Part shown: piece after piece, positions 5,241 to 57,412 of the stretch
Layout: every line of letters begins with the position of its first letter
Numbering within the stretch: the first letter of the stretch is position 1
Assembly: GCF_055900595.2 (NCBI RefSeq)
Contig: NZ_CM148325.1
Length of the DNA stretch: 64,000 nucleotides
Reading direction: 5' to 3' (one strand)
Translations under genes and position numbers: made by a program
The notes under the pieces: generated by a model
What the model saw: only the letters and a program-made list of their open reading frames with translations
Databases searched by the model: none
Told to the model about the DNA's origin: nothing

Positions 5241-6197
5241 ATGAACCCGATTGCAGTTACCCTACTCACCGGTTTTTTAGGCGCAGGCAAAACCACCCTG
5301 CTGCGCCATATTCTTAATGAACAACACGGCTACAAGATTGCCGTGATTGAAAACGAATTCGGCGAAGTCTCCGTTGATGATCAACTGATTGGCGACCGCG
5401 CCACACAGATCAAAACGCTGACCAACGGCTGCATCTGTTGTTCGCGCTCCAACGAGCTGGAGGACGCGCTACTCGACCTGCTGGATAATCTCGACAAGGG
5501 CAATATTCAGTTCGACCGTCTGGTCATTGAATGCACCGGCATGGCCGATCCCGGCCCGATTATTCAGACCTTTTTCTCCCATGAGATTTTATGCCAGCGT
5601 TACCTGCTGGACGGCGTGATTGCGCTGGTGGATGCGGTACATGCCGATGAGCAGATGAACCAGTTCACCATCGCCCAGTCACAGGTTGGCTACGCCGACC
5701 GCATTCTGCTGACCAAAACCGACGTCGCAGGCGAAGCAGAAAAACTGCGTGAACGCCTGGCGCGCATCAACGCCCGCGCACCGGTCTACACCGTCACCCA
5801 CGGCGACATCGATCTGGGCCTGCTGTTCAACACCAACGGTTTTATGCTGGAAGAAAACGTCGTCAGCACCAAACCGCGTTTCCACTTTATCGCGGATAAA
5901 CAAAACGATATTTCGTCGATTGTGGTAGAACTGGATTACCCAGTAGATATCAGCGAAGTTTCCCGCGTGATGGAAAACCTGCTGCTGGAGTCGGCGGATA
6001 AACTGCTGCGTTACAAAGGGATGCTGTGGATTGACGGCGAACCAAATCGCCTGCTGTTCCAGGGCGTCCAGCGCCTCTACAGCGCCGACTGGGACCGCCC
6101 GTGGGGCGATGAAAAACCGCATAGCACAATGGTGTTTATCGGGATCCAGCTGCCGGAGGATGAGATTCGGGCAGCGTTTGCGGGGTTGAGGAAGTAA
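5241..6197 (+). CDS. yjiA: CobW/COG0523-family metal-binding GTPase YjiA
   Basis: ORF track 5157..6197; start set at in-frame MNPIAVTLLTGFLGAGKTTLL (Walker A GxxGxGKT and CxCC metal motif GCICCS) giving 318 aa. GGAG precedes this ATG. Confidence 0.9.
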   Translation: MNPIAVTLLTGFLGAGKTTLLRHILNEQHGYKIAVIENEFGEVSVDDQLIGDRATQIKTLTNGCICCSRSNELEDALLDLLDNLDKGNIQFDRLVIECTGMADPGPIIQTFFSHEILCQRYLLDGVIALVDAVHADEQMNQFTIAQSQVGYADRILLTKTDVAGEAEKLRERLARINARAPVYTVTHGDIDLGLLFNTNGFMLEENVVSTKPRFHFIADKQNDISSIVVELDYPVDISEVSRVMENLLLESADKLLRYKGMLWIDGEPNRLLFQGVQRLYSADWDRPWGDEKPHSTMVFIGIQLPEDEIRAAFAGLRK

Positions 6198-7003: not shown

Positions 7004-8170
7004 GTGAAAAACTACAAAGTTATTACTCCGCTTTTTCCTACCTATGCGCAAGTTAAGGCTATGATGAAAGCCGTATCAGGCTATTCCCTGAAAGCGGTGC
7101 GCAATATGATTACTGCCATTCACGAGCAAACCGGAACGCCGCAAAAACCCGTTGACTGGTCGGAACCTGACCTGTGGATCAGCGAACGCTTAACGGGTGA
7201 AGATGCCGACATCGCCCGTCGTATTTGGGATACCGATAATCACATATTGAACCCGCGCCACAGCTACGGCTGCTACTTATTCCTTAACTATCCCCAGTTT
7301 GAGCTGATGGAAAGCACGCCAGACGATACCTGGCAGCCCACCTCGCGCGGGCAAAAATTCCTGCAAGATGACGAAAAAACGCTGCGTTCACTGGACGATC
7401 AGGAAGGCATTCTGCAACTTCTTGAACTGTTGGCAGGCCGTGAAATGTCGCGCCGCGCCGATTTATTGCCGGAATGGCAGGCCTTTTTGCATCAACATTC
7501 AAAATTCGCGTCTGCCAGTTCGGTGAAAAGCACACTCTACTCCCGACTCTATAATCTTATCGACCGTGACATGGTTACTCGCGAAGGTATGAGCTATCGC
7601 ATCACCGATACCGGGCGCGCCTGGCTTGGAAAAGCGTTGCCGGCACGAAAAAGCGATCCGCGTAAAGAGCTGCTGGAAGCGGTGAAACGCTACAACGAGC
7701 AGCAAAAAGAGCTGCTGCGCGAGCAAATCAGCACGATGAACCCGTACAAATTTGAGCAACTGGTCGGTCAATTACTGGAAGCAATGGGCTACGAGCAGGT
7801 CGAAGTGACCAAAGCCTCAGGCGATAAAGGCGTGGACGTGATTGGTCAGGTGCAGGTCGGCATCACCACCATTACAGAAGTGGTGCAGGTCAAAAGAATG
7901 CAGAACACTATCACTCGCCCGTATATCGACCAGTTGCGCGGGGCGTTGCCTTACCACAAAGCCATTCGCGGTACGCTCATCACCACCGGGAAATTTGCGG
8001 CGAAATGTGCAGAAGCGGCGCTCTTTCCGGGGGCAGCGCCCATTACGCTTATCGACGGCGATCGCTTACTGGAACTGTTAATCGAAAATAACGTCGGCAT
8101 TCGCCGCAGCAATGCAGTGGAATTGCTGGATGTAGATTTGCAGTTGTTTGATGAGCTGGAGATGGATTAA
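7004..8170 (+). CDS. mrr: Mrr-family Type IV restriction endonuclease (longer than K-12 Mrr)
   Basis: 388 aa; C-terminal Mrr catalytic-domain motifs (GDKGVDVIG ... VVQVKR ... LITTGKF) seen in the translation. The ORF track M corresponds to a GTG start preceded by AAGGGA. N-terminal two-thirds does not match K-12 Mrr as I recall it. Confidence 0.7.
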   Translation: MKNYKVITPLFPTYAQVKAMMKAVSGYSLKAVRNMITAIHEQTGTPQKPVDWSEPDLWISERLTGEDADIARRIWDTDNHILNPRHSYGCYLFLNYPQFELMESTPDDTWQPTSRGQKFLQDDEKTLRSLDDQEGILQLLELLAGREMSRRADLLPEWQAFLHQHSKFASASSVKSTLYSRLYNLIDRDMVTREGMSYRITDTGRAWLGKALPARKSDPRKELLEAVKRYNEQQKELLREQISTMNPYKFEQLVGQLLEAMGYEQVEVTKASGDKGVDVIGQVQVGITTITEVVQVKRMQNTITRPYIDQLRGALPYHKAIRGTLITTGKFAAKCAEAALFPGAAPITLIDGDRLLELLIENNVGIRRSNAVELLDVDLQLFDELEMD

Positions 8171-8233: not shown

Positions 8234-9853
8234 ATGGCCAAAGCACCAACTAAAAAAGCCAAAGCAAAGAAAGGCTTTGAAGAAACATTATGGGATACCG
8301 CAAACCAACTTCGCGGTAGCGTTGAGTCTTCCGAATACAAGCACGTGGTGTTGAGCCTCGTGTTCCTGAAATTCATCAGCGATAAGTTTGAAGCACGCCG
8401 CAAAAAAATGATTGCCGATGGGCAAGCTGACTTCCTTGAGATGGAAGTGTTCTACCAGCAGGACAACATTTTCTACCTGCCGGAAGAGGCGCGCTGGTCA
8501 TTTATCAAACAAAATGCCAAACAGGACGATATTGCGGTTCGTATTGACACCGCCCTCTCGACCATTGAGAAACGTAACCCAACCCTGAAAGGCGCGCTGC
8601 CAGACAACTACTTCAGCCGTCAGAATCTGGAAACCAAAAAACTGGCGTCACTGATTGATACCATCGACAACATCGAAACGCTGGCACACGAAACTGACGT
8701 TGAAACGTTATCGAAAGAAGACCTGGTCGGACGCGTTTACGAATACTTCCTCGGTAAGTTTGCCGCAACTGAAGGCAAAGGCGGTGGTGAGTTCTACACG
8801 CCAAAATGTGTGGTTACACTGTTAACAGAAATGCTCGAACCCTTCCAGGGCAAAATTTATGACCCGTGCTGCGGCTCGGCGGGGATGTTTGTGCAGTCAG
8901 TGAAGTTTGTCGAGAGCCATCAGGGTAAAAGTCGTGATATCGCGCTGTATGGTCAGGAACTGACAGCCACGACGTATAAACTGGCAAAAATGAACCTCGC
9001 TATTCGCGGTCTTTCAGCTAACCTCGGCGAACGCCCGGCAAACACTTTCTTTAGCGACCAGCACCCGAACCTGAAAGCCGACTACATTCTAGCGAACCCG
9101 CCGTTCAACCTGAAAGACTGGCGTAATGAAGCCGAATTAACCAAAGATCCACGTTTTGCCGGTTATCGTATGCCGCCAACCGGTAACGCCAACTACGGCT
9201 GGATTTTGCATATGCTCTCCAAGCTGTCGGCTAACGGCACAGCAGGTTTTGTGTTGGCAAACGGATCGATGAGTTCTAACACCAGCGGCGAAGGCGAGAT
9301 CCGTGCACAGATGATCGAAAATGATCTGATTGACTGCATGATCGCCCTACCTGGACAGTTGTTTTACACCACGCAGATCCCGGTGTGTTTATGGTTTATG
9401 ACCAAATCGAAGGCTGCCGATCCGGCCAAAGGTTATCGTGATCGTCAGGGCGAGACGCTGTTTATTGATGCGCGTAACCTCGGCACCATGGTTAGCCGCA
9501 CAACTAAAGAGTTAACGACGGAAGATATTGCCACAATCGCCGATACCTACCATGCCTGGCGCAGCACGCCGGAAGAACTGGCTGCGCGGATTGCGCGTGG
9601 TGACAGCAAGCTGGAAAAATATGAAGACCAGGCAGGCTTCTGCAAAGTTGCGACCCTGCAAGATATTAAAGATAACGACTACGTTCTGACACCGGGCCGC
9701 TATGTGGGTGCAGCCGAGCAGGAAGAAGACGGCGTGGCATTTGAGACGAAAATGCATGAATTGTCGAAGACGTTGTTTGAGCAGATGAAGCAGGCGGAAG
9801 AACTGGATCGTGCGATTCGCCAGAATCTGGAGGCGCTGGGTTATGGGGAGTAA
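8234..9853 (+). CDS. hsdM: Type I restriction-modification methyltransferase subunit HsdM
   Basis: 539 aa; N6-adenine methyltransferase motifs GEFYTP (X), DPCCGSAGMF (I) and NPPFN (IV) present in the translation. Confidence 0.9.
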   Translation: MAKAPTKKAKAKKGFEETLWDTANQLRGSVESSEYKHVVLSLVFLKFISDKFEARRKKMIADGQADFLEMEVFYQQDNIFYLPEEARWSFIKQNAKQDDIAVRIDTALSTIEKRNPTLKGALPDNYFSRQNLETKKLASLIDTIDNIETLAHETDVETLSKEDLVGRVYEYFLGKFAATEGKGGGEFYTPKCVVTLLTEMLEPFQGKIYDPCCGSAGMFVQSVKFVESHQGKSRDIALYGQELTATTYKLAKMNLAIRGLSANLGERPANTFFSDQHPNLKADYILANPPFNLKDWRNEAELTKDPRFAGYRMPPTGNANYGWILHMLSKLSANGTAGFVLANGSMSSNTSGEGEIRAQMIENDLIDCMIALPGQLFYTTQIPVCLWFMTKSKAADPAKGYRDRQGETLFIDARNLGTMVSRTTKELTTEDIATIADTYHAWRSTPEELAARIARGDSKLEKYEDQAGFCKVATLQDIKDNDYVLTPGRYVGAAEQEEDGVAFETKMHELSKTLFEQMKQAEELDRAIRQNLEALGYGE

Positions 9854-11207
9854 GTTTCAACTAATTTTATTAGATAATGTGGCCGAGGTAATCGACTCTA
9901 GACATAAAACCCCCAATTACACAGAAACCGGCTACCCAATGGTTCGTGTTGTCGATATTAAAAATGGTGAATTAGATTTAAAGAATACAAAGAGAGTCAC
10001 AAAGGATATATACGAGGACTTTTCAAAAGGACGATCTCCACAGATTGGAGATCTCATTATTTCCCGAGTAGGCTCATATGGGAACATATCCTACGTTTCA
10101 AAAAATGAAAAATTTTGCCTAGGGCAAAACACTGCATTTATTATCCCAAATGAAAAAAATAGCTATCTATATTATGCTTTAATATCTCCTTTTGTACAAC
10201 AACAAATTAACGACATGGCTGTCGGTGCTGTACAAAAAACAATTAGTTTAAAAAGCATTAAAAATTTAAAAATTCCGTACCCAGAGTTAAATATAAGAAA
10301 TATTATTTCTAAAAAATTAAGAGTTATTGATAATAGGATAAGTACTAATGATAAAATAAATCAAACCCTGGAAAAAATGTCCCAAACCCTGTTCAAATCC
10401 TGGTTTGTGGATTTTGATCCGGTGATTGATAACGCTCTGGATGCAGGAAATCCAATCCCGGAAACCCTGCAATCTCGTACCGAATTGCGTCAAAAAGTAC
10501 GTAATAGTACAGATTTTAAACCGCTTCCGGCGGAAATTCGCTCGCTTTTCCCAAGTGAATTTGAAGAAACGGAGTTGGGTTGGGTGCCAAAGGGCTGGAC
10601 GCTGAAGTCTGTAGCAAAATCCATAAATATAAATCCTAGTCTAAAATTACCAAAAAATAAAATCGCAAAGTATGTTGATATGAAATCTTTACCTACTCAA
10701 GGATATTCAATATCAGATATTATTGAAAAGCCATATTCAGGGGGAGCGAAATTCCAAAATAACGATACTTTATTCGCTCGGATAACTCCATGCCTAGAAA
10801 ATGGTAAAACAGGATTTGTTGATTTTTTAGATGAAAAAGAGACTGCGTTTGGCTCTACTGAATTTATAGTGATGCGAGGTACTCCTCAAGTACATTATTT
10901 GTATGTGGCTTGTTTAGCCCGAGAAAGTAATTTCAGGTTACATGCAATACAAAACATGATCGGTTCATCCGGCCGCCAACGGGTACAGAATAGCTGCTTT
11001 GATAGCTTTTATATTGCAATACCAACACCTGCTGTAATGAGCTTATTTTCAGGAAAAGTCAGTAGTTACTTTGATAAAATGTATTTCTGTAATTTGGAAA
11101 ACAAATCCCTGACAGCCCTCCGCGACACCCTGCTCCCGAAACTCATCTCCGGCGAGCTATCCCTGGAAGATCTTCCGGATCTCACCACCGATACAGAAGC
11201 CGCATAA
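9843..11207 (+). CDS. hsdS: Type I restriction-modification specificity subunit HsdS (two TRDs)
   Basis: ORF track 9810..11207; start set at in-frame MGSKFQL (aa 12), overlapping the hsdM stop. Two AT-rich variable regions separated and followed by conserved spacer segments (LFKSWFVDFDP ..., LRDTLLPKLISGEL). Confidence 0.85.
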   Translation: MGSKFQLILLDNVAEVIDSRHKTPNYTETGYPMVRVVDIKNGELDLKNTKRVTKDIYEDFSKGRSPQIGDLIISRVGSYGNISYVSKNEKFCLGQNTAFIIPNEKNSYLYYALISPFVQQQINDMAVGAVQKTISLKSIKNLKIPYPELNIRNIISKKLRVIDNRISTNDKINQTLEKMSQTLFKSWFVDFDPVIDNALDAGNPIPETLQSRTELRQKVRNSTDFKPLPAEIRSLFPSEFEETELGWVPKGWTLKSVAKSININPSLKLPKNKIAKYVDMKSLPTQGYSISDIIEKPYSGGAKFQNNDTLFARITPCLENGKTGFVDFLDEKETAFGSTEFIVMRGTPQVHYLYVACLARESNFRLHAIQNMIGSSGRQRVQNSCFDSFYIAIPTPAVMSLFSGKVSSYFDKMYFCNLENKSLTALRDTLLPKLISGELSLEDLPDLTTDTEAA

Positions 11208-11301
11208 CGCATTTTGCCCCTGTAAAATCAGGGGCTTTCTGGTAAGGTTTTCTACTGATACGGGAATGCTTACCAGAAATTAGCCAGGGTTGGAGCGCGA
11301 T

Positions 11302-14300
11302 ATGAGTCTCTCTTTCAGTGAAGCAAAATTAGAACAAGCGATCATTGAACTGTTACAGGATCAGGGATATCAACACCTGATCGGCGATAATGTCCCACGT
11401 TCAAGTCTCGATCAGGTCATTATCGAAGACGATCTCCGTCATTATTTAGCGGCACGCTACCAGCCTGATGGCATTACTGAAGAAGAGATTCAGCGACTGA
11501 TCAAACAGTTCACCACGCTCCCCGCTTCCGATCTTTATGAAAGCAACAAAACATTTTGTCGCTGGCTGGCAAATGGTTTTCTGTTCAAACGCGACGATCG
11601 GCAACAAAAAGATCTCTATATTGAATTGCTCGACACCCGGCATCTACCTGCCGCACTGCGCCAGATATTTGACGCCGAAGATGTCCCGTTGCAACAGGCG
11701 GCGGAACTCCCGCCCTCCTATATTAATCCGCCGCTTAACCGGATTAAGATTGTTAACCAGCTTAAAATCTCTGGTAAAGATAATCAGACTCGTATTCCTG
11801 ACGGCATTCTCTATATCAACGGTCTGCCACTGGTCGTCTTTGAATTTAAAAGTGCGGTGCGCGAGCAGGATGCCAGTATTGGCGATGCCTGGAAGCAGCT
11901 CTGTAAACGCTATCGCCGGGATATTCCGCAACTGTTTATCTACAACGCGCTCTGCATTATTAGCGATGGCGTTAATAACCGGATGGGCAACCTGTTTGCG
12001 CCCTATGAATATTTTTACTCATGGCGCAAAGTCACCGGTAATGAAAACCGTGAACAGGACGGAATTCCGTCATTGCACTCAATGATTCAGGGGCTGTTTC
12101 ATCCGGTACGTCTGCTGGATGTGATTAAAAACTTTATCTGCTTCCCGGATAAAGCCAAGCACGAAGTAAAAATTTGCTGCCGTTATCCGCAGTACTATGC
12201 CGCCCGCAAACTCTATTACAGCATCAAGCAAGCGCGTAAACCTTTCGGTAGCGGTAAAGGCGGCACCTACTTTGGCGCAACGGGCTGTGGCAAAAGTTAC
12301 ACCATGCAATTTTTAACGCGTCTTTTGATGAAGAGCGTGGAGTTTGCCAGCCCGACCATTGTTTTGATCACCGACCGCACCGATCTGGACGATCAGCTTT
12401 CTGCGCAAATGTGCAATGCCAAAAATTACATTGGCGACGACACCATCGTTCCTGTTACCAGCCGTGAAGATTTGCGTAATCAACTGGCGGGACGCAATAG
12501 TGGCGGTGTATTCCTGACAACGATCCATAAATTCACCGAAGACACCGAACTCCTTTCTGAACGCAGCAATATCATTTGCATCTCGGACGAAGCACATCGC
12601 AGCCAGGTTAACCTCGACCAGAAAGTCATCGTCGATAAAGAAAGCGGAAAAGTGCGCAAAACTTATGGCTTTGCGAAATACCTGCACGATTCACTGCCAA
12701 ACGCCACCTATGTTGGCTTTACCGGAACTCCGATTGACGCAACACTCGATGTCTTCGGTGAGGTGATCGACAGTTACACCATGACCGAATCCGTTCAGGA
12801 TGAAATCACTGTACGCATCGTGTACGAAGGCCGTGCGGCTAAAGTGATCCTGGACTCCAGCAAACTGGAAGAAGTCGAAAAGTATTACGAAGAGTGCGCA
12901 AACGCAGGCACCAATGAGTGGCAAATCGACGAAAGCAAAAAAGCCACCGCAACCATGAATGCGGTACTGGGTGATGAAGATCGGTTAAAAGCCCTCGCGG
13001 AAGATTTTGCTAAACATTATGAAAAACGCGTAGCCGAAGGTTCCACCGTAAAAGGCAAAGCCATGTTTGTTTGTGCCAGCCGTGAAATTGCCTGGGATTT
13101 CTACCGTCAGCTTAAAGCTATTCGCCCTGCCTGGTATGAAGTGAAGCAAGCCCCCGATGGCGTCGTCCTGACAGAACAGGAGCAAAAAGAGTTACCGCCT
13201 TCTGAAATGGTGAAGATGGTCATGACGCGCGGTAAAGATGACGACGAGGCGCTTTATGATTTACTGGGCACAAAAGAATATCGTAAAGAGCTGGATAAGC
13301 AGTTCAAAAACGCTAAATCGAATTTCAAAATTGCCATTGTTGTTGATATGTGGCTGACCGGTTTTGACGTTCCTGAACTGGATACCATCTATATTGATAA
13401 GCCCTTACAAAAACATAACCTTATCCAGACCATTTCTCGCGTTAACCGTAAACTGGAAGGCAAAAGTAAAGGGTTAGTGGTGGACTACATCGGCATTAAA
13501 AGTCAGATGAACCAGGCACTGGCAATGTATTCCCGCATTGATGCCACCAACTTTGAAGATATTCAGCAATCGGTAATCGAAGTTAAAAACCATCTCGATT
13601 TGTTGGGGCAAGTCTTTTACGAATTTGACAGTCGGGATTATTTTAGTGGTGAGCCACAAGCGCAATTATCCTGCCTCAACCGCGCGGCGGAATTCGTTCT
13701 GAGTACCCAGAAAGTTGAACGTCGTTTTATGGGACTGGTTAAACGCATGAAAGCCGCCTACGACGTCTGCTGCGGCAGCGAAGCATTATCACAGACAGAA
13801 CGTGACTATATTCACTATTATCTTGCTGTTCGTTCAATTGTTTTCAAACTGACGAAAGGTGACGCACCGGATGTTACCCAGATGAATGCACGCGTTCGCG
13901 AAATGATTGCAGAAGCGTTAAAAGCTGATGGCGTAGAAGAGATTTATTTTCTTGGCGATAAAAAAGCGGAATCCATCGATATTTTTGACGAAGATTATCT
14001 GGCGCGAATTAACAAGATCAAACTTCCGGCAACGAAGATCCAGTTATTACAAAAATTACTGGAAAAAGCAATCAGCGACTTCAAGAAAGTGAACCAGTTG
14101 CAAGGGATTAACTTCACCCGCCGCTTCCAGGCGATTATAGATCGTTATAATGAGCGGCGAGAAGATGATGTACTCAACGGTGAAGAATTCGATACATTCA
14201 GTCAGGAAATGACCGATATTATCTATGATATTAAAACCGAAATGGGTACCTGGGCCGACTTAGGCATTGATATTGAAGAAAAAGCCTTTTTCGACATTCT

Positions 14301-14565
14301 TGCTCATATGCGCGATAAATATCAGTTCACCTATGACGATGAAAAAATGCTGTCACTGGCAAAAGAGATGAAAAGCGTGGTTGACAACACATCGAAATAT
14401 CCTGACTGGAGTAAACGCGATGATATTAAAGCGAAACTGAAAGTTGAACTTATTCTGCTTCTACACAAGCATAAGTTCCCGCCAGTAGCGAATGATGATG
14501 TTTATATGGGTGTGCTGGCACAGGCAGAGAATTTTAAAGAACACCATATGAGTGCTTTAAATTAA
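11302..14565 (+). CDS. hsdR: Type I restriction enzyme R subunit HsdR
   Basis: ORF track 11290..14565; helicase motifs GATGCGKSYT (Walker A) and ISDEAHRS (DEAH box) seen. Start placed at second in-frame ATG (MSLSF), which has GGAG upstream; 11290 is the alternative. Confidence 0.9.
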   Translation: MSLSFSEAKLEQAIIELLQDQGYQHLIGDNVPRSSLDQVIIEDDLRHYLAARYQPDGITEEEIQRLIKQFTTLPASDLYESNKTFCRWLANGFLFKRDDRQQKDLYIELLDTRHLPAALRQIFDAEDVPLQQAAELPPSYINPPLNRIKIVNQLKISGKDNQTRIPDGILYINGLPLVVFEFKSAVREQDASIGDAWKQLCKRYRRDIPQLFIYNALCIISDGVNNRMGNLFAPYEYFYSWRKVTGNENREQDGIPSLHSMIQGLFHPVRLLDVIKNFICFPDKAKHEVKICCRYPQYYAARKLYYSIKQARKPFGSGKGGTYFGATGCGKSYTMQFLTRLLMKSVEFASPTIVLITDRTDLDDQLSAQMCNAKNYIGDDTIVPVTSREDLRNQLAGRNSGGVFLTTIHKFTEDTELLSERSNIICISDEAHRSQVNLDQKVIVDKESGKVRKTYGFAKYLHDSLPNATYVGFTGTPIDATLDVFGEVIDSYTMTESVQDEITVRIVYEGRAAKVILDSSKLEEVEKYYEECANAGTNEWQIDESKKATATMNAVLGDEDRLKALAEDFAKHYEKRVAEGSTVKGKAMFVCASREIAWDFYRQLKAIRPAWYEVKQAPDGVVLTEQEQKELPPSEMVKMVMTRGKDDDEALYDLLGTKEYRKELDKQFKNAKSNFKIAIVVDMWLTGFDVPELDTIYIDKPLQKHNLIQTISRVNRKLEGKSKGLVVDYIGIKSQMNQALAMYSRIDATNFEDIQQSVIEVKNHLDLLGQVFYEFDSRDYFSGEPQAQLSCLNRAAEFVLSTQKVERRFMGLVKRMKAAYDVCCGSEALSQTERDYIHYYLAVRSIVFKLTKGDAPDVTQMNARVREMIAEALKADGVEEIYFLGDKKAESIDIFDEDYLARINKIKLPATKIQLLQKLLEKAISDFKKVNQLQGINFTRRFQAIIDRYNERREDDVLNGEEFDTFSQEMTDIIYDIKTEMGTWADLGIDIEEKAFFDILAHMRDKYQFTYDDEKMLSLAKEMKSVVDNTSKYPDWSKRDDIKAKLKVELILLLHKHKFPPVANDDVYMGVLAQAENFKEHHMSALN

Positions 14566-14811
14566 TTATGAAGGCCGGATAATTCAATAATTATTCGGCT
14601 TACTCATTTATAAATATGGTAAAAACATCATAACAATATCTATAAATCATAGTTAAAAAAATCACGCTAACTCATTAAAAATATAAGTATTTTCACATTA
14701 TGGGTAAAAATACCATTCTCCTTTTGAGCTTAACAAATACAGACTCTATCCATTCATAACAGATCCGTGCATAATTTCATTTATCGCAGCACAACCAAAA
14801 CACAACACAAC

Positions 14812-14926
14812 CATCACATCACATCACATCACATCACATCACATCACATCACATCACATCACATCACATCACATCACATCGCATCACATCGCATCACATC
14901 ACATCGCATCACATCGCATTACATCA
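14812..14926. repeat. pentanucleotide microsatellite, about 23 units of CATCA with CATCG/CATTA variants
   Basis: Read directly: (CATCA)n runs uninterrupted from about 14812, with CATCG and CATTA variant units toward the 3' end, in the AT-rich intergenic region between hsdR and the downstream S-M module. Confidence 0.9.
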
Positions 14927-15220
14927 ACTTAACTTAAGTTAATAAATTTAAAACATATAACGCACAAAATTGGTCGTCTGATCTTTAGCGGAAAAAATCA
15001 TGACTGTAAAGTCATCATGTATTAACTACTTTTCCAGATATCACACCATTAAAAAAAATAAAAAAAATCAATTAGTTATAAAATTTTCAAACATAACACA
15101 TAACATTAATCTGATGCTCTCCAAAAAAATTAAGCAGTGCAGGGTGACAACCCCATAGCAGTACGCTACCTTACTGAAAAATTACTTAATACGATACTGA
15201 AAGTTAGAAGGAGCCACACC

Positions 15221-15391
15221 ATGAGGAAAAAGAAAGGGTTAAACCGAGTTATTTGCTTGTTTTTGATAACAATTTTATCACATTTAGTGTCTGATGATGA
15301 TATCCTATTATTTCAGTTAGAGGATCTGTCAAAAGCAAATACCTCTATGGGTATTCATCTTTCCGTTGATTTCAAACATGAGACCAAATGA
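15221..15391 (+). CDS. small ORF (56 aa) translationally coupled to the downstream half-S gene; hypothetical
   Basis: In-frame ATG (aa 29 of ORF 15137..15391) preceded by AGAAGGAG at 7-nt spacing; stop overlaps the next start as ATGA. Product MRKKKGLNRVICLFLITILSHLV... has a basic N-terminus and one hydrophobic stretch. No family recognised. Confidence 0.35.
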   Translation: MRKKKGLNRVICLFLITILSHLVSDDDILLFQLEDLSKANTSMGIHLSVDFKHETK

Positions 15392-15969
15392 TTATGAAAA
15401 ATCTATCAGAGATAGCATATGTTTTTGGTGGACACTCATTTCGTACCAAAGCTGAAGCTGCAACAGGTTGCATCAAACTTATTCAGATAAAAGATATACA
15501 GGCAGGCATATTTGGTGATTTCTCGTCACTTCCTTTTGCAGATCTTTCAGAAGAAAAACTAAAATTCAACCTAAAAACAAATGATATTCTTTTACCTTTA
15601 AGAGGCGAAAGGATAGCAGCAATGATGATAGATAACGAAAATAATGTTGCAGTTACTACAACGAATCAAATTGCCATTATAAGAATTAATAGCAATTTGA
15701 TCACTCCAGAGTATTTGTTATATTTTCTAAATGCACCGAAAGGTATTAATCTGATAAATGAACTACAAGGTAACGGATTGGTTACAAACCTTAGCATAAA
15801 AAAACTTACAACATTAACATTACCGATTCCATCATTGGATATTCAATATGAAGTTATTAACCTTCATAACATGTGGACAAAACAAAAAGAGACCTTATGT
15901 AGTTTAATAGAAAATGGTTCTGCATTGTGTCATGCAACAATCAATAAGTTAATCTACAAAGGAGAGTAA
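15388..15969 (+). CDS. half-size (single-TRD) Type I-like specificity subunit (HsdS-like)
   Basis: 193 aa; begins like a target-recognition domain (LSEIAYVFGGHSF) and ends with the conserved TRD-distal segment (ITPEYLLYFLNAPKGINLINELQGNGLVTNLSIKKLTTLTLPIP). AT-rich codon usage. Followed 3 nt later by the MTase gene. Confidence 0.7.
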   Translation: MIMKNLSEIAYVFGGHSFRTKAEAATGCIKLIQIKDIQAGIFGDFSSLPFADLSEEKLKFNLKTNDILLPLRGERIAAMMIDNENNVAVTTTNQIAIIRINSNLITPEYLLYFLNAPKGINLINELQGNGLVTNLSIKKLTTLTLPIPSLDIQYEVINLHNMWTKQKETLCSLIENGSALCHATINKLIYKGE

Positions 15970-15971
15970 AT

Positions 15972-17231
15972 ATGAAAATACAAGAATTTATAAGCATATT
16001 ACAATCTATCCCCTGCAATTCCCTGGATAAATACCAGAAAATGCTTATTTGTTTTGAAGCTACTGTACTAACTTATTTACATAAGGACTCTGCCAAGAAA
16101 ATTATATCAGTAAGTGAAATGGATATTGAACATATTTACAGACACTCGCCGTCATTAAATAAAAACAAAGTAACATGGGATGAGTTTTCTTATATTTTTT
16201 CAGATATAATCTTTCATATAAAGTCCTCTAACATGGATGTCAATAAATATATATCAAATATATTTCAACACCTTTGTTACGATTATCATCACAAAAAATT
16301 CTCTAAAATAGATATTATTAATATAATCACCTCGAATATTGAGCAACTAAGACCTCTATCTCAAAGGCATCATACTCCTAATGAGTTGGTTGAATTAATG
16401 AGTAAAATAGTCAATATCCAAGATGGTGATATTTTTTATGATCCTGCATGTGGTTCAGGTGAGTTCATTTCTGCAATGTTTAATAAAAATGTCATGATAT
16501 ATGGTACTGAAAGCATCATAGAAAGAGCTAAAATATCAAAATTAAAAATGCTCGCAACCGGAAATAATCCTTTAAATATTACGACGCCATATTTTAACGA
16601 TAATAATCTACCTGAAAAATTTGATATTATTTTATCCAACCCCCCTTTCTCTCTAAAAATACCTGAAAATATGCAAAAAAAAATTTGCATTTATGGAGAA
16701 CCACCTGTTTCAAATGCTGATTTTATATTTTTACAATTCTGCATTTACAAACTAAAAAATAATGGATGCGCTGCTATCATCATGCCGGACAGCATTTTAT
16801 TTAGAAGTGGAAAAGAACAAGAAATACGTAAATCATTTATTGAGAAAGGGCATATTTCCACCATTATTTTTTTACCGAAAGGTATTTTTAAAAACACTTA
16901 TGTACCAACAAGCATTTTGCTACTACGCAAGCAAAATGACTATGACGACATCCTATTCATTGATGCAAGAGATAAAACAACCTTCAACAACGATCTTATA
17001 ATTCATTTATTTACTGAACGTGAAAATAATAAGTTATCGAAGATTGTTACAAAATCAGAAATTGCTGATAATGATTATAACTTGTCAGCAGCATTATATT
17101 TTAAAGAAGAAACAGAAATACCAGAAATAGAACAATTAATAGACAATCAAAAATACCTCAGCAGTAAATTACAGGATTTACATTATGATTTCATTCACAC
17201 TATATCCAGATTATCACCAAAAAATGAATAA
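15972..17231 (+). CDS. compact gamma-class N6-adenine DNA methyltransferase (HsdM-like, 419 aa)
   Basis: Motif I DPACGSGEF and motif IV NPPFS in HsdM-like order and spacing; AGGAG precedes the ATG. Strongly AT-rich. About 130 N-terminal residues unassigned. Confidence 0.8.
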   Translation: MKIQEFISILQSIPCNSLDKYQKMLICFEATVLTYLHKDSAKKIISVSEMDIEHIYRHSPSLNKNKVTWDEFSYIFSDIIFHIKSSNMDVNKYISNIFQHLCYDYHHKKFSKIDIINIITSNIEQLRPLSQRHHTPNELVELMSKIVNIQDGDIFYDPACGSGEFISAMFNKNVMIYGTESIIERAKISKLKMLATGNNPLNITTPYFNDNNLPEKFDIILSNPPFSLKIPENMQKKICIYGEPPVSNADFIFLQFCIYKLKNNGCAAIIMPDSILFRSGKEQEIRKSFIEKGHISTIIFLPKGIFKNTYVPTSILLLRKQNDYDDILFIDARDKTTFNNDLIIHLFTERENNKLSKIVTKSEIADNDYNLSAALYFKEETEIPEIEQLIDNQKYLSSKLQDLHYDFIHTISRLSPKNE

Positions 17232-17261
17232 TTTGCTGCAAAACGCCACGCTAAGCTCCCC

Positions 17262-17284
17262 CCTTCCCTGCACGGGAAGGGGAA
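17262..17284. terminator. hairpin between convergent MTase gene and yjiS
   Basis: CCCTTCCC-TGCAC-GGGAAGGG inverted repeat read directly. Coordinates approximate. Confidence 0.4.
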
Positions 17285-17292
17285 TTGCCCCC

Positions 17293-17457
17293 TCACTCCA
17301 CATCCTCCCTGCGTAACCCAATATCTCTCAACCGCTCATCACTCATCTGCTGTAACACGCGTCGGGTCTGCATTTGCCGCCGCCAACGCCTCACCGCCTG
17401 CCAGAGTTGCACCAGGCCGATAAACGGCGGTTTAGCTCTGTTTTCGTGAAATTCCAT
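17293..17457 (-). CDS. yjiS: DUF1127-family small protein YjiS (54 aa)
   Basis: Not in the ORF track (<60 aa). My reverse-complement translation: MEFHENRAKPPFIGLVQLWQAVRRWRRQMQTRRVLQQMSDERLRDIGLRREDVE. Divergent from yjiR. Coordinates approximate. Confidence 0.7.
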   Translation of the reverse strand: MEFHENRAKPPFIGLVQLWQAVRRWRRQMQTRRVLQQMSDERLRDIGLRREDVE

Positions 17458-17633
17458 CTGCTGCCTCCTCATCTTTCAGAGGCTTCATCATCCGCCTTCT
17501 GGCAGTTCACAATACAGATGCAAATATCAGTTTTATTTAACATACAGACAGGTTAAAACAACATCTGCATCCGGTTTTTTAGCCTCATCTGTACCGGTTT
17601 TTCTCTCTGTATGGTCCAAATAAGGAGTACAGC

Positions 17634-55796: not shown

Positions 55797-56399
55797 CTAT
55801 AAAACAGCGTGATGCTGTCGTCCTCTGGCTCTATCCCAGATGCCGTAAAAACGCCCTGCATTGCTGGCGGTATACCAGACAGTATGACGAATATTGCGAT
55901 GTCCAAGATAATCCTGGATAAGTCGTGTATCTATTCCCATATTCGCCAAAGCAAAACCACACGAATGGCGTAACATATGCGGATGAATCTCCAGTGATAA
56001 CCCAGCATTACCACCAGAAGTCGAGATAATATGGTAAAACTGTTGCCGAGAAAGCGGGTTCCCCTTACGTGATAAAAATACCCACTCGCTCTCAGCATGC
56101 GGATAAGAAGTACGTATACTCAACCAGTTTTTTAAAGCCTGAACTTCTTTGTTCAATAGCGGGTGCGTTGTTGAAAAGCCTTTTTTTAATCGATGGATAT
56201 ATATACACTTTGCCTTAAGATCAATATCCGAAATCCTCAATCGACAAATTTCACTCGCCCGGAAACCATGAATAAAACAAAGCAAAGTCAGACAATAATT
56301 ACGTGCTGCATGAGGCCCGGTATTTGCTGCTTTAAGGAGTGACTCGATTTCACTATGGGTCAGGAAGTTCCTTTTTTTGTTATCAGCCTTATTCTTCAT
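55797..56399 (-). CDS. fimB: tyrosine recombinase FimB (bidirectional fim switch recombinase)
   Basis: 200 aa; paralogous to fimE (HPHMLRH ... LIQDYLGHRNIRHTV in both). Confidence 0.9.
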   Translation of the reverse strand: MKNKADNKKRNFLTHSEIESLLKAANTGPHAARNYCLTLLCFIHGFRASEICRLRISDIDLKAKCIYIHRLKKGFSTTHPLLNKEVQALKNWLSIRTSYPHAESEWVFLSRKGNPLSRQQFYHIISTSGGNAGLSLEIHPHMLRHSCGFALANMGIDTRLIQDYLGHRNIRHTVWYTASNAGRFYGIWDRARGRQHHAVL

Positions 56400-57412
56400 C
56401 GTTTTCCCTTATAATTACAGACGCGCACTAGCTGTGCTGGGTTAGCAATAATCCAACATTTTAATCCTGATTATGTTTATAAAAGCGAACGTTTGCTTAA
56501 TAACTAACGTAAGTGGACCAGTTCTTCTGAGTGAACTTAAATGGAGTAGCGATAGTTACTTATAATAACTTTGCCATACAAACGCCATGCTCTTGCATGC
56601 TATGTACCTTTATATATTTATCAATGTGATACGAATCTAATAATAACCCTCATCATTAATGCAACTAATCTTATCTATATATCATGTGATATGTTCTGTA
56701 ACAAGTAAAATCAACATAAAAAATTCAGCAAAATTTAATATTCGTTCAACTAGCCGTCTCACATATGACATTATTAGTCAACTGCATTTGCCACAAAATG
56801 GCTATTTCATGGAACGCAGTAATTTCTTAGCGTCTATTATCATGCTAATTCTTAGGTCCCTAGCGATTATTCCTGTCTGGTTCGTCAACTCACGCCATGA
56901 GATTGTTATATTCCTTTTTATCATGGAGATATGGGGGAAAGCAGGCGACGCTTTTTCATCTACATTCATTGGTAAATATGGCTTTGGTCACTACGTCTTA
57001 AACCTTCTTCAATCACAGCTATTCGCCGGGCGCTACGGCAAACAAACTAAGTGAAGCATCATCCTGAAAACACCATCATCAACAAGCCTCTCCAGATCGA
57101 CTTCAGAAGTGACCAGTTACAAGCCACAAACCTGGAAACATATTTCATGATGAGAATTATGCTCAGCCTGATGGCGGGTAAACACTTATTTTCACCAAGC
57201 TCACTGAGTTAGCTTGCAAAGCTTTCCTTGTTTAGATTCTAAATAAATTATCTATAAAACAGATAGTTAAAAGAAAATCTTTAGTTTTTGAAGACCACCG
57301 CAAGTGTTCGTCTGGCTTCACATGGCATCTTCCTCTTAGAAAAAGATCGACATATTTTGTGACACGAATTGCAAATCTGGTTTTGTTGTATGGATTGCGT
57401 GATTTTTGATCT

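Follow-up and report, generated by a model that had tools for sequence, protein, structure and literature searches.

The stretch analyzed here, called the window, comprises 64,000 nucleotides (nt) of contig NZ_CM148325.1 from NCBI RefSeq assembly GCF_055900595.2. Between the Type I gene hsdR and yjiS it carries an AT-rich islet with a cassette of three consecutive open reading frames (ORFs), encoding a small protein of 56 amino acids (aa), a half-size HsdS-like protein (S) and a compact HsdM-like DNA methyltransferase (M). Positions are window coordinates; numbers preceded by L are labels of compared loci, among them strain MB52 (L001, NZ_CP073943.1), K-12 (L022) and a representative of E. coli without the cassette (L028). 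The features of the islet are listed below.

14582-17237, no strand: AT-rich islet of 2656 bp with a G+C content of about 30%, delimited by composition and by homology breakpoints against L028 and 1085 genomes
14801-14926, plus strand: pentanucleotide repeat (CACAT/CGCAT)n, detected with TRF, about 220 bp upstream of the predicted -35
15144-15172, plus strand: predicted sigma-70-type promoter (-35 GTGACA at 15144-15149, 17-nt spacer, -10 TACCTT at 15167-15172)
15159-15176, no strand: inverted repeat CAGTA-N8-TACTG across the predicted -10, a possible operator and a candidate site for recognition by the methyltransferase
15221-15391, plus strand: small ORF of 56 aa; 7 nt upstream of it is the ribosome-binding site GAAGGAG, and its stop shares an ATGA with the start of S
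15388-15969, plus strand: half-size HsdS-like specificity subunit of 193 aa, with one target recognition domain (TRD) and one C-terminal helix (Pfam Methylase_S)
15972-17231, plus strand: compact HsdM-like gamma-class N6-adenine DNA methyltransferase of 419 aa (Pfam N6_Mtase, PDB, hhalign, AlphaFold2 (AF2)/Foldseek)

The original prediction had placed a strongly AT-rich insert between hsdR and yjiS, with three ORFs of 56, 193 and 419 aa and an ATGA overlap; all of this was found as described, at 14582-17237. The M gene starts 2 nt past the S stop, not after the predicted gap of 3 nt, and AAGGAGAG precedes the M start. Profile searches also confirmed the proposed HsdS-like and HsdM-like identities. 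The S protein matches Methylase_S over residues 4-154 (Pfam, E 1.2e-7), and also the PADLOC Specificity_I and mad5 profiles. With 193 aa, it does not show the architecture of a two-TRD S subunit with two conserved helical regions (approximately 400-470 aa). A profile search of 1.84 billion representative proteins returned 33 clusters of S relatives at E<=1e-30, all of 109-208 aa and none full-size. The M protein matches N6_Mtase over residues 133-381 (Pfam, E 8.5e-52) and contains the motifs DPACGSGEF and NPPFS, which are invariant in nine family members. By sequence it matches HsdM structures in PDB, down to 3e-27; the match to BsaXI covers the catalytic domain only. The NCBIfam, PADLOC and PDB sequence searches concur in a generic assignment of M and S to the Type I families. 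Alignment of the M family with canonical HsdM by hhalign gave a probability of 100%, but only for residues 116-416 (approximately), as far as the C-terminal helix. This helix (386-414 in the AF2 model) could form a coiled coil with S.

Residues 1-130 of M have no match in Pfam, in agreement with the unassigned N-terminus of about 130 aa noted previously, and hence no HsdM N-terminal domain (PF12161) was detected. A divergent HsdM_N in this region was considered and is not supported by hhalign, whose alignment starts at about residue 116; AF2 confidence is low here. A hidden nuclease was considered as well and rejected: no nuclease match was found in Pfam, NCBIfam or PADLOC, and the region is predicted to be all-alpha, with no beta sheet. 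With residues 1-130 predicted to be helical throughout and without a match to any nuclease family, a BcgI- or BsaXI-like nuclease fusion is unlikely.

The small protein begins with basic residues (MRKKK) and contains a hydrophobic segment of about 12-18 residues; toward its C-terminus the pattern G..L..DFK.E is conserved. A Lys/Arg-rich N-terminus and a tail with alternating hydrophobic residues characterize its family. The ORF lies in the same place in every family member examined, with a length of 53-63 aa. Among the enteric alleles, identity is highest at codon position 2, followed by positions 1 and 3, and the ratio of nonsynonymous to synonymous substitution rates (dN/dS) is 0.23-0.5, compared with 0.09-0.14 for S. 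The chance of an open 56-codon frame at the composition of the islet is approximately 1% per allele. Together, the codon-position pattern, the dN/dS values and the low chance of an open frame show the small ORF to be a selected gene; judged from these comparisons, it is a conserved, family-specific third component of the cassette. No match to the small protein was found in Pfam, PHROG, PADLOC or NCBIfam, and AF2 yielded a single N-terminal helix at low to moderate confidence and nothing more informative.

The predicted promoter was read from the sequence, and its position is conserved in L002, L003, L004 and L012. A generic consensus promoter scan did not list it, and conservation is its sole basis. 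The enteric alleles conserve a -35-like GTGACA or ATGACA and a -10-like TAnCTT, and all of them retain CAGTA-N8-TACTG over the -10. In the promoters of the Pseudomonas-type loci and of L023, L024 and L025, CAGTA(C)-N5/6-(G)TACTG abuts the upstream edge of a near-consensus TTGACA. A second copy of the palindrome lies between the -10 and the ribosome-binding site in the Pseudomonas-type loci, L023 and L025, and L024 has the first copy only. Counted within 180 nt of the start of the small ORF, AGTA-N7/8-TACT is present in 12 of the 13 promoter regions of the family (summed expectation from shuffles, 0.1), always on or beside the -35 and -10 elements. A LexA box was considered for this repeat and rejected: its half-sites stand in the inverse order, CAGTA..TACTG instead of TACTG..CAGTA, and CTGT-N8-ACAG is absent. 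Full-text searches for a published motif like AGTA-N7/8-TACT or GTAC-N5/6-GTAC gave only the unrelated RTAYN5RTAY of H. pylori.

Two further AGTA-N8-TACT sites were observed in the window, at 40581-40596 and 56545-56560, where no ORF of at least 90 aa is listed. The former follows an ORF ending at 40446; the latter lies between the divergent ORFs 55797-56399 and 56659-57054. Together with the copy at the cassette promoter, three sites were found in the 64 kb versus 0.42 expected, a number reached in two of 100 shuffles. This excess may reflect the composition of AT-rich intergenic DNA. If the cassette methylates AGTA-N8-TACT, both sites are candidate regulatory targets.

Conservation was compared among the window, L002 and L003. 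In the resident Type I system, identities are 93-97% for HsdM, 92-95% for HsdR and 38-65% for HsdS. In the cassette they are 66-75% for S (68-76% for its recognition domain), 48-55% for M (36-44% for its N-terminal part) and 30-66% for the small protein. The recognition domain of S is the best-conserved part of the cassette, which is the reverse of the pattern in Type I families. The S motifs QIKDI(R/Q)(E/A)G, LPLRG.R and TTNQ(V/I)A are retained even at 38% overall identity, and the dN/dS of S indicates purifying selection. The joint conservation of recognition domain and palindrome across the family suggests that specificity is fixed and not diversifying.

The islet is flanked on the left by hsdR (11290-14565), which is preceded by the resident hsdM (8234-9853) and hsdS (9810-11207), with a Mrr-like gene (7004-8170) ahead of hsdM. 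On the right follow yjiS (17293-17472, minus strand) and yjiR. G+C content is 29-33% over positions 14400-17200 and approximately 45-57% in the flanks. The resident hsdR allele is present in 1085 of the 5426 complete E. coli genomes; the homology of these 1085 genomes to the window ends about 16 nt past the hsdR stop (position 14581, approximately), and homology with cassette-less relatives picks up again at about 17238. The corresponding hsdR-to-yjiS interval of L028, which represents the 1085 genomes, contains symE only. The order yjiS-yjiT-yjiV-mcrCB-symE-hsdSMR in K-12 had been given correctly in the original prediction, but its placing of the islet at mcrBC/symE was upheld for symE only: since the nearest cassette-less relatives carry symE alone, the islet takes the place of symE. 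The Type I family of K-12 differs from the resident one, so that K-12 is not the closest comparator. Among the complete E. coli genomes, the islet was found in one, strain MB52, at the same site and with 99.4% identity (L001 9001-11655). Among draft assemblies, approximately 100-330 contigs from E. coli, E. fergusonii and cryptic Escherichia carry exact copies of the islet proteins. Rfam gave nothing credible within the islet. The islet is best explained as a self-contained, horizontally acquired three-gene cassette.

The arrangement small ORF-S-M recurs in Escherichia, Salmonella, Klebsiella, Citrobacter, Pseudomonas and metagenomes, in about 20 related loci. Close homologues of M are few, with four to five clusters at 45-53% identity and thereafter about 35% over the catalytic domain alone; every close homologue is accompanied by a 56-aa ORF and an S of 191-193 aa, is itself 417-424 aa long and lies in DNA of 30-34% G+C. 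Scanning species-representative genomes and metagenomes with the S alignment added Citrobacter sedlakii, Pseudomonas botevensis with related metagenome contigs, and three more distant variants (S 38-40% and M 29-33% identical). The context of three of the 33 S clusters was looked up, and was again small ORF-S-M.

The genomic contexts of the cassette vary. It stands directly after hsdR in the window, MB52 and L029, after hsdR-symE in L002, and before mrr-hsdMSR and after a NERD/UvrD-type helicase gene in L003 and the Salmonella loci L030/L031. It follows a broken mrr, with no Type I system, in L004-L007 and in Citrobacter (L012). In the Pseudomonas-type loci L013, L015, L016 and L018 the cassette again follows hsdR, with the layout mrr-hsdM-hsdS-(two genes)-hsdR-small-S-M. 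Other copies lie beside DarT/DarG-like genes (L014, L017), between cobalamin-biosynthesis genes (L021), or, in L025, amid housekeeping genes where 9 kb to either side are free of hsdR. Across the approximately 20 related loci no conserved nuclease or other fourth gene was found, and the cassette has no hsdR with it in L004-L007, L012, L021 or L025. The hsdR of the window belongs to the upstream hsdM-hsdS-hsdR unit, which is found without the cassette in the 1085 genomes. The assignment as an orphan Type I-like S-M module without a nuclease of its own is supported by these sequence comparisons, as is the earlier claim that the module contains no restriction subunit.

Several neighbors of these cassettes were noted. 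The helicase upstream of the cassette is a NERD-domain/UvrD-type protein of 613-615 aa (L003 5151-6998; L030 2801-4642) and could be a separate defence gene or a functional neighbor of the cassette in that lineage. Two extra genes with overlapping stops and starts lie between hsdS and hsdR in Pseudomonas botevensis (L013 4354-6377) and also in L018; judged by eye from the sequence, those of L013 encode a 324-aa protein of an unknown family and a 350-aa YhcG/DUF1016-like protein (PD-(D/E)xK type). L016 has a different insert at the second position between hsdS and hsdR. Macro-domain DarG-like genes are convergent to the distant cassettes of L017 (3448-5755) and L014 (2620-3612), and DUF4433 (DarT-like) proteins are present in L017 only, both again judged by eye. 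With these neighbors, and with no Type I genes on the L014 and L017 contigs, the surroundings of both cassettes resemble defence islands. A phage origin of the cassette was considered and rejected: there are no relatives among viral contigs, and the PHROG matches are only to generic methyltransferase and S families.

Among known systems, M.AhdI from Aeromonas hydrophila's Type II restriction-modification system is comparable in several respects. It is an M2S2 enzyme with a half-size S that recognizes GACN5GTC (PMC2878638). Like the cassette, it combines a separate Type I-like M with a half-size, single-TRD S, whose expected dimer implies a symmetric bipartite target, and its M/S promoter has a palindromic site over the -10 (a predicted -10 in the cassette). 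Attenuation of this promoter by methylation of the site over its -10 was shown experimentally, for AhdI only (PMC2878638, PMC2275141). Unlike the cassette, AhdI has a convergent unit for a controller protein and the nuclease (no such ORFs occur in the islet or are conserved in the related loci), the order M then S instead of S then M, no small upstream ORF, and larger proteins (M.AhdI 532 aa and S.AhdI 227 aa, versus 419 and 193 aa). The canonical Type I core HsdM2HsdS1 (EcoKI, EcoR124I and the resident system at 8234-14565) shares the gamma N6-adenine domain with DPxCGSG/NPPF, Methylase_S, and C-terminal helices on M and S for coiled-coil assembly. It differs in that the cassette S has one TRD instead of two, the cassette M is about 120 aa shorter and without a recognizable HsdM_N, the unit lacks hsdR, S is more conserved than M, and there is an extra small gene.

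A single TRD with one helix is also found in the half-HsdS enzymes (EcoR124I-NT, EcoDXXI truncations, CC398-1 half-S). In these, a single TRD with a conserved helix dimerizes, mimics a full S and yields an active methyltransferase with a palindromic target (PMC6158711, PMC2877798). They are laboratory derivatives that keep their cognate HsdR and a full-size HsdM, whereas the cassette is a natural, widely dispersed family. Profiles of the MADS (methylation-associated defence) system match weakly, mad2 to M and mad5 to S. Membership was rejected, with scores of 54.5 versus a cut-off of 720 bits for Mad2 and 20.1 versus 400 for Mad5; Mad5 is full-size, and the other mad genes are absent from the islet. 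The PD-(D/E)xK domain that stands N-terminal to the methyltransferase in Type IIB/IIG enzymes (BcgI- and BsaXI-like) was not found in the cassette M.

By analogy with M.AhdI, we consider it reasonably probable that the cassette encodes an orphan adenine methyltransferase of M2S2 composition, with a fixed palindromic target, which regulates its own promoter. The model is drawn from the half-size S, the Type I-like M with its C-terminal helix and the promoter palindrome, which parallel M.AhdI; the joint conservation of recognition domain and palindrome fits it. Two single-TRD S subunits would associate via their C-terminal helices, and two M subunits would join them, as in M.AhdI and the engineered half-HsdS enzymes, and the resulting complex would recognize a symmetric bipartite sequence. 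A candidate for the target, or for a part of it, is (C)AGTA-N8-TACT(G) across the -10 of the cassette's own promoter, where binding or methylation may cause negative autoregulation as at the AhdI MS promoter. The 56-aa product would be translated first and coupled to S, and may be membrane-associated or an assembly partner. The M2S2 stoichiometry, the palindrome as recognition site, the autoregulation and the enzyme activity itself are all properties that we infer. Of the three roles suggested in the original prediction (an AhdI-like M2S2 methyltransferase without nuclease, a solitary epigenetic regulator, or a second specificity module borrowing the upstream HsdR), the AhdI-like methyltransferase fits best.

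Several observations weigh against this model. The spacer of the palindrome is N7 or N8 depending on the promoter, and both lengths occur in L023, which is unusual for a rigid Type I-like ruler; the promoter of L017 has no perfect copy of the palindrome, and it may be another factor that binds the repeat. Part of the canonical stretch G..FE....FA...GK..GxFYTP, which distant members keep, has been lost from the enteric M proteins, and this could impair activity. The small protein finds no explanation in an M2S2 enzyme, and the position of the cassette directly after hsdR, both in the window and in Pseudomonas, has to be put down to coincidence or to the clustering of defence genes in islands.

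This last position would suit an accessory specificity module, in which the M2S2 core would recruit the resident HsdR (11290-14565) and provide a second restriction specificity without a second hsdR. The most telling point in its favor is the Pseudomonas synteny mrr-hsdM-hsdS-...-hsdR-small-S-M, which matches that of E. coli; in addition, the cassette stands immediately downstream of hsdR in the window and MB52 and after hsdR-symE in L002, the Salmonella and L003 cassettes lie beside the same mrr-hsdMSR family, and engineered half-S methyltransferases restrict when the HsdR of their own system is supplied (PMC6158711). On the other hand, at least four lineages (L004/L012, L021, L025, L017/L014) have no nearby hsdR, and HsdR borrowing can therefore not be the general mode of the family. 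The cassette M is 27% identical to the resident HsdM, in the catalytic domain only, and its N-terminal region cannot be aligned with HsdM_N; the HsdR proteins of Pseudomonas and E. coli are 32% identical, so that no conserved partner family is evident; and the association in enteric bacteria is confounded by the shared yjiA-yjiS defence hotspot. The Pseudomonas synteny lends some weight to the earlier suggestion that the module borrows HsdR, as far as the window is concerned; as an explanation for the cassette we consider it unlikely. The small protein, which the methyltransferase model leaves unexplained, is central to an explanation of the cassette as an abortive-infection or addiction element, which we rate as quite improbable. 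The small hydrophobic protein would be a membrane-active effector and M-S a promoter-bound repressor or sensor; if M-S were lost or titrated (by DNA-mimic anti-restriction proteins, depletion of S-adenosylmethionine (SAM) or loss of the cassette), the operon would be de-repressed, to the detriment of the cell. The small ORF does stand first in the operon, and its product resembles Hok in layout, with basic residues at the N-terminus, then a hydrophobic helix and a short tail; its hydrophobic part, however, is short, with about 12 residues in distant members, and the toxin, PADLOC and Pfam libraries gave no homologues. Every cassette lies either among defence genes (Type I, Mrr, BrnTA, NERD/UvrD helicase, DarTG-like) or as an isolated insertion, and a conserved recognition domain and operator suit a regulator better than a restriction specificity. 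Against this, the ribosome-binding site of the small ORF is strong, and the ORF shares a transcript with its supposed repressor. The frameshifted M of Salmonella (see below), with small ORF, S and operator intact, can be read in favor of a toxin, but an abundant M-defective lineage argues against a lethal effector that is restrained by methylation.

A related possibility, to which we assign a similarly low probability, is a decoy or guard for Type I restriction. Instead of modifying DNA in the usual sense, the M2S2 core would occupy the operators and keep the promoter off until Ocr or ArdA (anti-restriction DNA mimics of phages or plasmids) or SAM depletion strips it from the DNA, which would set off abortive infection, with the small protein as membrane-active effector. 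If true, this would account for a recognition domain and operator that are fixed across genera, for the clustering of the cassette with defence genes, those of Type I included, and for the lack of a nuclease. It appears very improbable that the cassette is merely what remains of an earlier Type I or AhdI-like restriction system, decaying or inert, silenced in AT-rich DNA and now functionless. Its rarity (one of the 5426 complete E. coli genomes), its AT-richness and the 2-nt frameshift in M of the common Salmonella allele would fit a remnant. However, although the proteins diverge by 45-70%, none of the three ORFs is disrupted in the window or in most alleles; dN/dS values are 0.09-0.5, catalytic motifs do not vary, and promoter, operator and translational coupling are conserved across genera; the 332-aa M annotations, moreover, are gene-calling choices on identical DNA and not lesions.

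Orphan pairs of Type I-like M and S are usually dismissed as broken restriction systems. The cassette, in contrast, is a coherent, selected family across genera, with fixed gene order, an extra small protein, a conserved recognition domain and a promoter palindrome. Familiar as its basic parts are, the family is unusual in its fixed specificity, its putative self-operator and a third gene without an explanation. The conserved 56-aa third component, the conserved recognition domain, the promoter palindrome and the replacement of symE only are results that go beyond the original prediction. Should the palindrome prove to be the target, the family would be a natural, nuclease-less counterpart of the autoregulated AhdI methyltransferase, and the specificity of the methyltransferase could be predicted from the promoter. 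If the small protein is an effector or a membrane anchor, the cassette would add an element of a new kind to the immigration-control hotspot of enterobacteria.

In the common Salmonella allele, a deletion of 2 nt shifts the reading frame of M at about codon 57 (L030/L031, approximately 5990-6001). The M annotated there has 361 aa and begins at an internal codon; neither the 56-aa ORF nor S nor the CAGTA-N8-TACTG operator is affected. This abundant allele forms a cluster of 2190 sequences, serovar Enteritidis included. The mrr gene adjoining the Salmonella cassette is also broken in L031. Published methylomes of S. Enteritidis list, a few genes away from the active hsdM, a Type I gamma methyltransferase with no motif assigned, and report no extra motif (PMC4393132). 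This methyltransferase could not be verified as the cassette gene; if it is, the missing motif would be uninformative on intact alleles.

Current RefSeq annotation misses the small ORF, as in MB52, and places the start of M wrongly. Many M records of E. coli and E. fergusonii begin at the internal Met88 (332 aa) or Met143 (277 aa). A lesion was considered for the truncated 332-aa entries and rejected: the DNA in L029 is identical to the full 419-codon ORF, and the shorter protein reflects the annotator's choice of start.

The pentanucleotide repeat lies between the hsdR terminator and the cassette promoter, outside the ORFs, and occurs only in the Escherichia allele of the islet. The number of (CACAT)n units varies, with 21 in the window, 18 in L029 (2097-2186) and seven in MB52 (L001 9250-9284), between near-identical flanks. 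In phasevarions, a repeat whose length switches expression lies within the methyltransferase ORF or its core promoter; the polymorphic tract of the islet lies about 220 bp upstream of the predicted -35. The tract could modulate expression or could merely be hypermutable filler. Short-read contigs stop inside it (L008).

Beyond the islet, an Rpn-family (RpnD-like) gene is located beside yjiR (19288-20244, minus strand). Its annotation is that of a pseudogene in K-12 and of two fragments in MB52; in the window it is an intact ORF of 318 aa.

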